Positions 27,100 through 42,642 of a stretch of 47,180 nucleotides of DNA are shown here, in pieces. Both the position numbers and the translations under genes were made by a program. Every line of letters starts with the position of its first letter. Position 1 is the first letter of the stretch. The notes under the pieces are model-generated. The model saw only the letters and a list, made by a program, of their open reading frames with translations. It had not been told where the DNA came from and searched no databases. Source of the DNA: Escherichia phage phiEB49; the sequence record JF770475; one strand, 5' to 3'.

Positions 27100-27453
27100 T
27101 TACTGCATACTGGTAAAAACTTCTACAAACTGCATTGATACAGTCTGCAATTCCCTAGTATTTGGCGTGACGCTGATGCTATCCTGAGCCACAACAAACA
27201 GCTTAAGCTCACCCTGCGGATTTGTCCATGCGAACGGGGTGATGATATGTGCAAAGCAGAAGTCCAATACTTCCTTCCAGTTGGTGTTGGTGTATGTCAT
27301 GTTGTAGGTTCTGACGTTTGTGTTATATCCTCCACTTCCAATTTGCTTGTAGCCGCCACCAAATGAAACCGTCCTTACGTTGCTTGTATTGGTGAAGGAA
27401 CCCCCTCCATTTTGAATCTGAGTACACCAGTTAAAACTTTCTAATGCCATCAT
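27100..27453 (-). CDS. M: minor tail protein (lambda M-like)
   Basis: 117 aa, position between tape measure and L. Confidence 0.65.
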   Translation of the reverse strand: MMALESFNWCTQIQNGGGSFTNTSNVRTVSFGGGYKQIGSGGYNTNVRTYNMTYTNTNWKEVLDFCFAHIITPFAWTNPQGELKLFVVAQDSISVTPNTRELQTVSMQFVEVFTSMQ

Positions 27454-27929
27454 TTACTCCCGTGATTTTTATGAAATCCGTGCTCTACCTCAGCATCCCT
27501 TCTTACCTTTATCGCATCTTCGAGATTTTCATAAATCCCAAGATAGTATTTTTTACCATTTGCGTGTATTGATGCGCACCACTTTGATGCAGCTTTATGC
27601 CACTCAACGCCTACGCATCCACTCTTATTTCTCTTGCTTATGCTTAAGTTCTGATTGTTATGGAATATTGTAACAACCCTTAGGTTTTCAATCCTGTTAT
27701 CTGTCCTGACGTGATTTATATGATCGATTTGCATTCCTTCTGGTATTGGGCCATTATGCATCTCCCAAATCAATCTATGAGCAAGCATGCGATTCTTCAT
27801 GTATGATACCGTTATGTAACCTTGCTTTGTTTTTGCTCCAACGATGTCACCAATGTTGGTCCTATATCTTGGCTTCACCTTCCAGTAAAGAACACCATCT
27901 CTATACTCAAAAATATCATTCCAGTTCAT
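27450..27929 (-). CDS. HNH homing endonuclease with AP2 domain
   Basis: HRL.WE...G.IP.G..IDHIN..R.DNRI.NLR plus AP2-like C-terminus; stop overlaps M start. Confidence 0.75.
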   Translation of the reverse strand: MNWNDIFEYRDGVLYWKVKPRYRTNIGDIVGAKTKQGYITVSYMKNRMLAHRLIWEMHNGPIPEGMQIDHINHVRTDNRIENLRVVTIFHNNQNLSISKRNKSGCVGVEWHKAASKWCASIHANGKKYYLGIYENLEDAIKVRRDAEVEHGFHKNHGSK

Positions 27930-27957
27930 TTCTTAAATCCTCGGTTAATTTTCACTC

Positions 27958-28002
27958 ATTGTATCAAGCCAAGTCCATTTGGCTTTAACAAAAAGTGCTA
28001 TT
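27958..28002 (-). promoter_or_regulatory. dyad-motif promoter for HNH gene
   Basis: Core 27986-28000 (TAACA-N5-TGCTA) abutting tape measure stop; minus TACAAT 27958-27963. Confidence 0.45.
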
Positions 28003-40522: not shown

Positions 40523-40551
40523 TATGTATCTCCTCTCGTTTGTGTGAAGTT

Positions 40552-40596
40552 AATATACGCCATCCTTGGCGATTTTCTTTAGTAATTCGTGCTATT
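40552..40596 (-). promoter_or_regulatory. dyad-motif promoter (variant TAGTA-N5-TGCTA) with spacer hairpin
   Basis: Core 40580-40594 overlapping TerL stop; spacer hairpin CGCCA-agga-TGGCG; minus TATATT 40552-40557. Confidence 0.45.
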
Positions 40597-42154
40597 TCAC
40601 TCCAGCCAACCTCATTAACCTAGCTCTTGGGTCATCGCTCAAGTTCAACTCGCAGTTGATAGCCATCGTTGTAGTGTCCACGATATCATCATGAGGATGT
40701 GAATCGTCCGCAGTGAACGCTGAGAACTCAGTTAGCAGCGATGTAAGCCATGGCGCAGAGTCTGGCAGAACTACGTTACCAGCCTTAATCTGCGGCAATG
40801 CACTCATCACCCTGGTTAACTTATCTGTATCTGGAACGAAAGGCTCGATAGGTGTTCGCATCGCGCGCCCTGCTGACTGGATAAGCCCTATGCCGGATGC
40901 TTTCTTCTCGATAATAACCTTGCGTAAGATGCCATCCGTTTTACTGGTAGCTCTATGCTTACTCTCAAAGTCCAGAAGAGTTCGCTCAAGCTCTGGAGCC
41001 TCCCATTTACCCCTAACCATATCCAGAAGATAAATCTTGTTATCCTTTCTACCCCAAAGCTGGAATACAGAGTAGTCGCTGTAACTCTTGGTTGTCATGG
41101 CAGTATCAGCCGTTATGAAGCGGTAATCATACTTAACTGGCGGCCTGTTATTTTCATCAAGACGAACAAACCAATCGACGTTGATCAGGTTTCCACCGAG
41201 CGCCACTGGTTCTTGAAGATATTGACTCATGAAGGTATAGCTATCTTGATCCCATAGCTTCATTATGTCATGAACTGATTCCTTTTGTGGGAAATAGCTA
41301 TAGTACTTAACGCCATCTCTTTCTATGTATTCAGATGATAGAACATCCTTACAAAACTGCTCACGAATCCAATCAGGAAGCTCATTGGCGTACTCTTCTG
41401 TAACTAAAGCTGGAATCTTAACCACGTCAAATTCCATGCCCATGCCACCCTCTTTCATTAGCCACGTAGCATCATTAACATGCAATCGCTGCTGGATAGA
41501 TATTACAGGCGTCTCCTTTCCTTTTACTGAGCTAGCCCTACGAGAGCGAACCGTGTTTGTTAGAGTTGTGTGTACGGAATCGCGCTTAACCTTACTAAAC
41601 ATATCTGCGGGTTTCTCGCAATCATCCAACATAATACACCCGCTATATGTGTCAGTAATGTAGCCGCCACGACTACCAGTAATCTGCGAGCCCATAGCCT
41701 TTGATATTGACTCGAACCTTACCCTGCCTGAATCATCAAGAACTTGTATCTCATCATCCCTTGAGGTGCCAAACTTGCAAGGCCATAGTTCCTGAAACTC
41801 ATTTGAACTAATTAAATCCCTGACTCGCTTTGAGTTCCTCTTAACCAACGTATCAGCGAAGCTAAGATTTAGGTTCCTTACCTTACCCAGCTTTATCATG
41901 CTGTATACAGGGAAGTGGATACTGAACAGCTCCGTTTTAGATGCGCCAGGAGCAACGTTGATTATCGTGTTTTTCCTTTTGCCCTCAATAATCTCATCAA
42001 CAATCCTGCAAAGGTATTTCGCGTGCCAGTTCATAATGAACTTCTGGCCCTGTGTGATTGAGAACCAGCAGCGCAAGAATCCTTCGAAGCTATGCTCTGA
42101 GATTGCTTTGATTGCTAACTTTTCCTGATTGGTTAATTCATCCCATATAATCAT
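40592..42154 (-). CDS. terL: terminase large subunit
   Basis: 520 aa; N-terminal ATPase P-loop-like VAPGASKTE; C-terminal nuclease-like region; position. Confidence 0.85.
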   Translation of the reverse strand: MIIWDELTNQEKLAIKAISEHSFEGFLRCWFSITQGQKFIMNWHAKYLCRIVDEIIEGKRKNTIINVAPGASKTELFSIHFPVYSMIKLGKVRNLNLSFADTLVKRNSKRVRDLISSNEFQELWPCKFGTSRDDEIQVLDDSGRVRFESISKAMGSQITGSRGGYITDTYSGCIMLDDCEKPADMFSKVKRDSVHTTLTNTVRSRRASSVKGKETPVISIQQRLHVNDATWLMKEGGMGMEFDVVKIPALVTEEYANELPDWIREQFCKDVLSSEYIERDGVKYYSYFPQKESVHDIMKLWDQDSYTFMSQYLQEPVALGGNLINVDWFVRLDENNRPPVKYDYRFITADTAMTTKSYSDYSVFQLWGRKDNKIYLLDMVRGKWEAPELERTLLDFESKHRATSKTDGILRKVIIEKKASGIGLIQSAGRAMRTPIEPFVPDTDKLTRVMSALPQIKAGNVVLPDSAPWLTSLLTEFSAFTADDSHPHDDIVDTTTMAINCELNLSDDPRARLMRLAGVK

Positions 42155-42642
42155 TAATTTCTATCTCCGTGATTCTTGTGAAACCCGAGAGCGTCTACAG
42201 CGTCTGAGCGAGCCTTTGCCGCAGCTTCTATTGTGTCAAATCTACCTAGATGCTTTGACTTTCCGTTAATCATGATTCTGGCCCTCCATTTACAATGGCG
42301 ACTACACCATGTTACACCTGATATTCCTGAAGTGTTATTCTTGAACCTACTCTTATTCTTTTGATTCTCTGACCTAGTAACCATTCTCAAGTTATCAATT
42401 CTGTTGTCGCTTCTGTCATGGTTGATGTGGTCAATTTCCATTCCGTCAGGTATTTTACCGTTAAACATCTCCCATACAACACGGTGAGCTTTAACCTTGC
42501 CAGTCTTTAAATTTATGTTTACATAACCTTCGCTGGAATCAATATTACCAGCAACGTGACCTTTCTTTCTTGAACCATTTTTTAAGCTGCGCTTCCAGTA
42601 AAGCAAGCCATCATCATAATCAAATTCATCATGCCAATTCAT
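42154..42642 (-). CDS. HNH homing endonuclease with AP2 domain, translationally coupled to TerL
   Basis: HRVVWEMFNGKIPDGMEIDHINHDRSDNRIDNLR; stop overlaps TerL start (TAATG). Confidence 0.75.
   Translation of the reverse strand: MNWHDEFDYDDGLLYWKRSLKNGSRKKGHVAGNIDSSEGYVNINLKTGKVKAHRVVWEMFNGKIPDGMEIDHINHDRSDNRIDNLRMVTRSENQKNKSRFKNNTSGISGVTWCSRHCKWRARIMINGKSKHLGRFDTIEAAAKARSDAVDALGFHKNHGDRN

Follow-up and report, generated by a model that had tools for sequence, protein, structure and literature searches.

The genome of Escherichia phage phiEB49 (JF770475; its full 47,180 nt are hereafter "the window", and the same sequence is held as IMG/VR UViG 2700988963) encodes four HNH_3 nuclease genes, HNH1 to HNH4, and one zinc-ribbon HNH-like gene, ORF5. 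All five are probably free-standing homing endonuclease genes (HEGs), each an invader of a tight junction beside a conserved essential gene, and a role in DNA packaging for HNH1, the copy next to TerL, is not supported. This conclusion is carried by the domain identity of the genes, their intact catalytic residues, precise insertion junctions, occurrence in some relatives and not in others, orthologues at the same sites in other subfamilies, and tracts that resemble co-conversion. Genes of this kind are well known, the phiEB49 genome is published, and mobile HNH genes in T1-like phages, including repositioned ones, are already in print (PMC13164509). A sequence-only reading of the same DNA had listed five free-standing, homing-endonuclease-like HNH genes, and the corresponding open reading frames (ORFs) are present with the same coordinates, all on the minus strand:

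42154..42642, minus strand: HNH1, 162 amino acids (aa), putative HEG with HNH_3 and AP2-like parts, between TerS and TerL
34853..35377, minus strand: HNH2, 174 aa, HNH_3 plus AP2-like gene, 3' of the major capsid gene
32390..32872, minus strand: HNH3, 160 aa, HNH_3 plus AP2-like gene, at the junction of the tail terminator and major tail protein genes
27450..27929, minus strand: HNH4, 159 aa, HNH_3 gene, at the junction of the tape measure and minor tail protein M genes
15497..15919, minus strand: ORF5, 140 aa from its ATG, zinc-ribbon HNH-like endonuclease gene, after the gene for the single-stranded DNA-binding protein (SSB)

Domains, insertion junctions and cassette leaders

HNH1 to HNH4 all match Pfam HNH_3 above its curated threshold (54-88 bits against a cut-off of 24.8; E 3.6e-25, 1.1e-14, 2.8e-23 and 4.8e-22, respectively). 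A profile of 14 family members, the four window genes included, matches I-HmuI (1U3E) over its N-terminal part (positions 1-98, E 3.5e-10) and the AP2 domain of WRI1 over its C-terminal part (positions 96-150, E 1.4e-6), and residues D71, H72, N84, N93 and N96 are invariant across the 14 aligned members. Of the two domains behind the earlier description of these four as AP2-type HNH genes, HNH_3 lies far over the cut-off in Pfam, whereas AP2 is sub-threshold in HNH1 (E 3.2e-7), HNH2 and HNH3 taken singly, is not detected by Pfam in HNH4, and is matched only through the family profile. We predict that the four genes encode I-HmuI-like HNH nucleases with an AP2-like C-terminal DNA-binding domain; an AP2-carrying family of HNH homing endonucleases was reportedly described by Magnani et al. 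in 2004. With pairwise identities of 33-48%, HNH1 to HNH4 are old, divergent paralogues, and no further HNH_3 paralogue was found in the window. ORF5 matches PHROG 2340, annotated "endonuclease" (E 2.5e-41), and more weakly endonuclease VII and HNH PHROGs. Its HNH motif and zinc ligands (C98, C101, H109, H110, D112, W121, C123, H127 and H131, together with an N-terminal CxxC..CxxC) are invariant in 31 homologues, in agreement with the zinc-finger-type HNH assigned to it by the sequence-only reading.

The same reading had proposed comparing the insertion sites with HNH-free relatives, and this comparison revealed presence and absence with precise junctions at all five sites, which, together with the domains, bears out the homing-endonuclease-like character of the genes. 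phiEB49 is a T1-like phage (Drexlerviridae) of the JK06/Rogue1 cluster, and its nearest GenBank genomes are UDF157lw, Rogue1, Sd1 and Opt-719 (85-87% identity over 50-70% of the sequence). Read along the minus strand, homology to Rogue1, UDF157lw and Sd1 breaks off at the upstream stop codon and is taken up again at the downstream start codon where cassettes replace gaps of 0, 13 and 29 bp. By site, homology to HEG-free relatives is interrupted as follows:

HNH1 site: homology ends at the last TerS sense codon and resumes at TerL, without a gap; an ATGA overlap is replaced
HNH2 site: homology ends at ~35454 and resumes at ~34825; ~77 bp are replaced, and the -10 and ribosome-binding site of the downstream gene are retained
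HNH3 insert, 32369-32941: homology ends at 32942 and resumes at 32368; a 13-bp gap is replaced
HNH4 insert, 27451-27998: homology ends at 27999 and resumes at 27450; a 29-bp gap with a hairpin is replaced
ORF5 cassette as inserted, 15499..15956, minus strand: directly follows the SSB Phe codon and stops short of the shared terminator; homology ends at 15957 (last base of the Phe codon) and resumes at 15498; TAATGC is replaced

From these junctions, the exact sequence of the unoccupied site can be read for four or five candidate homing sites. The distribution of the genes is patchy, and orthologues sit at homologous positions rather than at non-homologous ones. HNH1 is 97.5% identical (aa) to a gene at the same site in UDF157lw, annotated "DNA-binding protein" there, and no other relative examined shares it with the window (a single GenBank phage in all); Rogue1 and Sd1, with a TerS of 86-88% identity, lack it, and a scan of IMG/VR returned the window itself and no other contig. 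At the post-capsid site, HNH genes also occur in Rogue1, Sd1, C119 and phiKP26, with the Rogue1 and Sd1 copies 37-38% identical (aa) to HNH2, and UDF157lw carries neither an HNH gene nor a 5' module there. HNH3 (100% identical to gp45 of phiEB49) has same-site orthologues of 59-75% identity in RobRod40 and in four metagenomic phage contigs (L154-L157) from a protein database, and the IMG/VR scan for it found only the window and homologues of at most 50% identity. For HNH4, the orthologues at the corresponding junction are those of JeanPiccard, IME253 and ACG-M12 (50-67% identity). HNH genes also lie at other junctions, namely between tail genes I and J in Sd1, and between the head morphogenesis and protease genes in Sparks.

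Upstream of all four HNH_3 genes lies a 16-nt motif, TAGCACNNTTTGNTAA (TAGCAC-N3-TTG(C/T)TAA, a partial palindrome TAGCA-N6-TGCTA), with TAnnnT 22-23 nt further on:

42643..42710, minus strand: 5' part of the HNH1 cassette; element 42695-42710, -10-like TATCAT 42668-42673, ribosome-binding site
35378..35447, minus strand: HNH2 5' module; element 35432-35447, terminator-like hairpin 35409-35426, T-run/-10-like TATTTT
32873..32942, minus strand: HNH3 5' module; element 32927-32942, hairpin 32909-32928, -10-like TATTAT 32900-32905
27930..28000, minus strand: HNH4 5' module; element 27985-28000, dyad AAGCCAAATGGACTTGGCTT, -10-like TACAAT 27958-27963

The window contains 19 copies of this motif against 1.84 expected (0 of 100 shuffles reach 19), and in 17 of the 19 a TAnnnT follows TTGnTA by 21-23 nt. 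The copies on either strand point the same way as the genes downstream of them, precede replication, lysis and structural genes alike, and are equally frequent in UDF157lw, Rogue1 and Sd1; example sites are 589-604, 1729-1744, 7049-7064, 40579-40594 and 46093-46108. Because the 22-23 nt spacing is too long, TTGnTA is not a canonical -35, and a plain sigma-70 scan did not call the four sites upstream of the HNH genes. The earlier claim that each gene sits behind its own dyad promoter therefore holds insofar as all four HNH_3 genes carry a phage-wide element at the right spacing, but not in the sense of a canonical -35; the motif may be the site of a regulator, and no feature marks it as early. 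The suggestion of the sequence-only reading that the genes have been absorbed into the phage early program thus finds no support in the distribution of the motif. HEG-free relatives lack it at the TerS/TerL, tail terminator/major tail protein and tape measure/M junctions and after the capsid gene; the motif thus belongs to the cassettes and arrived with them. The window, Sd1 and Rogue1 share a conserved HNH2 5' module despite divergent HNH ORFs, and the module is separable from the ORF that it precedes. The HNH4 module (promoter and dyad) is also found in JeanPiccard, IME253 and ACG-M12, and the HNH3 module is present in the window and L157 and absent from RobRod40 and three contigs. G+C-rich hairpins at 32909-32928, 35409-35426 and 27966-27985 (minus strand) lie between the 16-nt element and the -10, and two of these, each with a T-run behind it, are scored as intrinsic terminators. 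Cassette leaders may thus stop upstream transcripts and restart transcription.

Four other stretches of the window (25806-26294, 36436-37465, 8068-8430 and 43510-43905) have no DNA match in Rogue1, UDF157lw or Sd1 and are possibly further insertions or replacements. The first contains a 121-aa ORF between tail genes, preceded by another copy of the 16-nt element, and the second is situated among head genes.

The TerS/TerL junction

HNH1 lies in a junction flanked by the two terminase genes:

42708..43223, minus strand: TerS, Pfam GP3_package
40592..42154, minus strand: TerL, Terminase_6C match; one base of its ATG also belongs to the HNH1 stop

The TAG of the promoter element in the HNH1 cassette now serves as the TerS stop, and at the other end HNH1 and TerL share the TAATG overlap at 42154 that the sequence-only reading had pointed out and linked to a possible role of HNH1 in assisting DNA cleavage during packaging. 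The overlap is real; the link to packaging fails. In HEG-free Rogue1, the TerS stop overlaps an in-frame TerL ATG (ATGA; CTATGAAG), and the peptide read from this ATG, MKTLVWEEMTPAEK, aligns with TerL of the window (MIIWDELTNQEK) and of Rtp (MSDLIVWDELTHAEK). Since the TerS-overlapping ATG fits the conserved N-terminus, the annotated start of Rogue1 TerL is probably 24 nt too far downstream (L002 4276-4300). In Sd1, a 37-aa ORF occupies the junction (L003 38549-38662) with ATGA overlaps on both flanks, one between TerS and the ORF and one between the ORF and TerL. Because ATGA overlaps occur in HNH-free Rogue1 and Sd1, TerL is coupled to whatever ORF precedes it, and the overlap is inherited, that is, ancestral to the junction. 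Short gene overlaps are common along the phiEB49 operon, and at the tape measure/M site the TGA of HNH4 likewise overlaps the native ATG of minor tail protein M by one base (TGATG at 27450), a parallel that the sequence-only reading had missed. Accordingly, a stop/start overlap with TerL, or a terminase-adjacent position, is no evidence for a packaging HNH protein, as the overlap belongs to the junction and not to the gene.

That HNH1 is a packaging accessory comparable to HK97 gp74, cutting concatemers together with terminase and kept in stoichiometry with TerL by the TAATG overlap, is in our view highly improbable. Such a role would fit its place between TerS and TerL, its overlap with the TerL start, and the presence of an HNH gene at the same junction in Rtp, and HNH genes adjoining terminase genes are common (PMC3592412). 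The Rtp gene (rtp20) is a different HNH gene with 45% aa identity, which shares the TAG|CAC 5' junction (identical in the HNH1 cassette, UDF157lw and Rtp) and overlaps TerL. HNH1 itself is missing from most relatives, as described above, and is a paralogue of genes at tail and capsid junctions, one of which (HNH4) displays the same geometry at a tail gene. Moreover, terminase-associated HNH proteins carry a CxxC/CxxH zinc site and are encoded in the order HNH-TerS-TerL(-portal), beside cos (PMC3592412), whereas HNH1 has Pfam matches to HNH_3 and AP2 only, no Cys pairs around its motif, and the order TerS-HNH-TerL. TerL carries its own nuclease domain, and T1-like genomes are terminally redundant, circularly permuted and headful-packaged (PMC4070988, PMC13164509). 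As originally stated, then, the finding matters little: mobile HNH genes are routinely annotated in T1-like genomes, and the packaging link does not survive.

Consistent with homing, the first ~950 bp of TerL (42154 to ~41250) are 90-94% identical to HNH1-bearing UDF157lw and only 65-75% identical to HNH-free Rogue1 and Sd1, whereas all three match the window at 84-94% identity in TerS and at the TerL 3' end. This tract, linked to HNH1, resembles a product of co-conversion, and we regard it as supportive rather than as proof because the genome is mosaic elsewhere too. Rtp was considered as the donor of the divergent TerL tract and rejected, being only 70.8% identical.

Altered ends of the major tail protein and SSB genes

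At two sites, the cassettes may have rewritten the ends of essential genes, making synthesis of the tail protein dependent on a selfish element and capping the tip of SSB with a selected peptide, a proposal that we make tentatively. The genes concerned are:

31718..32368, minus strand: major tail protein; ATT (32366-32368) where relatives have ATG, 6 nt after GGAGG
15909..16370, minus strand: SSB gene; beyond the usual ...DDIPF end of the protein it encodes a 15-residue extension, APIGLQYGMSNIYVL, in codons 15912-15956

The HEG-free allele of the major tail protein start is TAATTAAGGAGATTTACATGGCCCATCTC; HEG-free genomes read TAAGGAGATTTACATGGCCCATCTC where the window reads TTGGAGGTGTATTATTGCCCATCTC. 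Between the HNH3 stop and the ATT position there is no in-frame ATG, GTG or TTG, and the next such codon lies 19 codons downstream. The first 17 tail-protein codons differ from those of Sd1 by 10 synonymous changes and in no residue; they are therefore translated, and purifying selection acts on the N-terminal codons. All six HNH3-type alleles (window, L004, L154-L157) show GGAGG followed 6 nt later by ATT (five alleles) or ATC (L157), 14-27 nt past the HNH stop. Two other origins of the N-terminus were considered: a read-through fusion of HNH3 with the tail protein is rejected, as the HNH stop is out of frame in two of the six alleles, and the upstream TTG annotated as the start in RobRod40 is unlikely, being absent from the window and L157 and situated only 4 nt before GGAGG. 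These alignments suggest that the tail protein is likely initiated or reinitiated at AUU/AUC, driven by the Shine-Dalgarno sequence of the cassette. The change from ATG to ATT or ATC may protect the HEG-bearing allele from its own nuclease, and a natural non-AUG or termination-reinitiation start may penalize loss of the HEG. Non-AUG initiation could thus be studied on a natural example, the very abundant major tail protein. Gene callers truncate its gene or pick the doubtful upstream TTG, and the observations made here and at the Rogue1 junction explain why the major tail protein and TerL are truncated or mis-started by gene callers in these phages.

At the SSB site, the ORF5-free allele ends GATATTCCGTTTTAATGCAAAAGATAAAGCCCC, and the protein gains its extension because the cassette removes the SSB stop. 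ORF5 overlaps the SSB 3' end by 11 nt, as the sequence-only reading had seen, and its ATG falls within the final codons of the lengthened SSB gene. In ORF5-type loci generally, the nuclease ATG lies inside the last extension codons or overlaps the extension stop, and no 16-nt promoter element was found near ORF5; on this basis, ORF5 is probably expressed by coupling to SSB. ORF5 and its flanks are 95.7% identical (nt) in ACG-M12, SCS31 and ECH1, and the window, which is 62-76% identical to ACG-M12 in the flanking regions, reaches 98-100% over 16400-15500, i.e. the whole SSB gene and ORF5, while its SSB is only 80-86% identical to that of the otherwise closer Rogue1 and UDF157lw. Judged from these identities, the SSB and ORF5 block is a clear co-conversion tract that spans the whole SSB gene. 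ACG-M12 shows the same arrangement of ORF5 and SSB, as do ESh4, from another Drexlerviridae subfamily, and Mt1B1_P17, a myovirus of 151 kb.

This association extends well beyond the relatives of phiEB49: at 44 of 80 IMG/VR loci of the ORF5 family, the nuclease gene lies 29-82 nt after the SSB ...D[DE]IPF codon. SSB at these 44 loci ends with one extra residue in 35 cases (Asn, Ser, once Arg), none in 6, five residues in 1, and a 15-residue extension in 2. At environmental phage loci (L013-L091), diverse SSB genes run past ...IPF by one codon, for Asn, Ser or in one case Arg, before the stop (CCTTTTAATTAG and the like); a leader with TATAAT follows, and then the nuclease. Of 120 Drexler-type SSBs, IPF is the terminus in 110, and the other 10 continue for exactly 15 residues more. 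The extension follows the pattern A-x-x-G-L-Q-Y-G-... (window; L008, L009, L011, L035, L150-L153), most variants end in hydrophobic residues (..IYAL, ..IYVL), and the GLQYG core residues are kept through 2-4 synonymous codons per position. This codon usage points to selection on the extension peptide, and the idea that the extension is a neutral scar is accordingly doubted. A HEG cycle can be read at the SSB site, with the nuclease intact in L153, internally deleted in L152, decayed in L150, and gone with the extension retained in L151. As the extension is conserved and kept after nuclease decay, it would have either a function of its own or be selected as a cleavage-immune SSB allele. L150 also carries an HNH_3 gene (996-1499) between its Erf recombinase and SSB genes, so that SSB there is flanked by one HEG and the remnant of another. 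Taken together, these comparisons suggest that the ORF5 family may have specialized on the most conserved piece of SSB, its ...DDIPF-stop end, and that in enterobacterial lineages it may cap the SSB interaction tip with a 15-residue peptide. ORF5 thus belongs to a widespread family of nucleases associated with the C-terminal tip of SSB, through which SSBs recruit partner proteins.

Homing, retention and known systems

By analogy to the "intronless homing" of phage T4, we propose that in a mixed infection the nuclease would cut the HEG-free allele in or near the neighboring gene, in regions that may comprise the TerL 5' region, the start of the major tail protein gene, the tape measure/M junction and the SSB 3' end. 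Repair from the HEG-bearing genome would then copy the cassette together with flanking sequence, and the four HNH_3 cassettes would travel as units of phage-type promoter element, ribosome-binding site and ORF. Intronless homing and co-conversion have both been described (PMC2988022), as have a HEG family combining HNH with AP2, HEGs that neighbor essential genes, and sites whose HEGs are interchangeable (PMC10448857). In operons read by stop/start coupling, a cassette would survive only if its 3' end restored the downstream start, and this requirement would account for both the TAATG overlap at TerL and the TGATG overlap at protein M. For the five genes of phiEB49, we infer the nuclease activity, the target sites and the timing of expression.

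Several observations weigh against an interpretation of these genes as HEGs. Single-sequence Pfam AP2 scores (31, 22.6, 16.6 and 0 bits) are all under the cut-off of 33.3; ORF5 has no Pfam or NCBIfam match, and its structural matches are weak, with nothing significant in Foldseek; and no co-conversion can be seen around HNH2, HNH3 or HNH4. The genome is also mosaic independently of HEGs, so that a divergent tract flanking a HEG could be the product of ordinary recombination. For instance, the portal-to-capsid region of phiEB49 (~35450-40200) is 60-80% identical to the Rogue1 cluster, and its portal and capsid proteins are Rtp-like (PMC4070988).

One alternative holds that the genes are inactive relics, or AP2-type DNA-binding regulators that have lost nuclease action. 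AP2 domains gave rise to transcription factors, according to a passage of PMC10448857 that cites Magnani 2004, each gene lies behind a regulatory element, and decayed copies of the ORF5 family exist elsewhere. We nevertheless consider this unlikely, since all five ORFs are full length, the D-H/N/N residues are invariant in the HNH_3 set as are the Cys/His ligands in the ORF5 family, and the SSB and ORF5 block, at 95.7-100% identity to a phage of another subfamily, indicates recent transfer. Within the homing interpretation, a refinement that we regard as possible, albeit doubtful, is that the HEGs are partly domesticated or "addictive", with cassettes supplying a promoter, a Shine-Dalgarno sequence and a coupled start to their neighbors, such that simple deletion would be lethal. 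This would agree with the ATT or ATC that replaces the major tail protein ATG behind a cassette-borne GGAGG in six of six HNH3-type alleles, with the overlap of the TerL and protein M starts with HEG stops, and with a candidate promoter (TTGCTA-17-TATAAT) for the next gene in the 3' end of HNH2; in T4, the same arrangement has been argued to favor retention (PMC2988022). The SSB site, however, shows that a HEG ORF can be deleted with its junction kept, and RobRod40-type HNH3 cassettes lack a promoter, which is therefore not obligatory.

Among known systems, HK97 gp74 and N.phiGamma of phage gamma (PMC3592412) resemble HNH1 as HNH-superfamily nucleases encoded beside terminase genes. They differ from it in being short PF01844-type proteins with CxxC/CxxH zinc sites rather than HNH_3 plus AP2, in lying upstream of TerS beside cos rather than at the TerS/TerL junction of a headful phage, and in being conserved with their terminase, whereas HNH1 is missing from most relatives. 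The T4 seg and mob genes (PMC2988022) share with the phiEB49 genes intergenic insertion in the direction of the operon, co-conversion of neighbors, and downstream-gene signals that lie within or behind the HEG. T4 SegG, next to gene 32 (the T4 SSB gene), parallels ORF5 as a HEG paired with an SSB gene (PMC2988022), although SegG is a GIY-YIG protein encoded upstream of gene 32, and ORF5 is a zinc-ribbon HNH gene placed after the last SSB codon that alters the SSB C-terminus. The closest counterparts are the "IPA-HNH" and HNH-3 HEGs of ICP1, of the I-HmuI type with HNH_3 and AP2 (PMC10448857), which have the domain order predicted for the phiEB49 genes and, like them, an intact HNH motif. Like these, I-HmuI-type HEGs are free-standing beside essential structural or packaging genes, occupy sites shared by different HEGs, and are patchily distributed (PMC10448857). 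There is no essential difference between them and the genes described here, except that most phiEB49 cassettes carry the host phage's own 16-nt element and that their activity is predicted.

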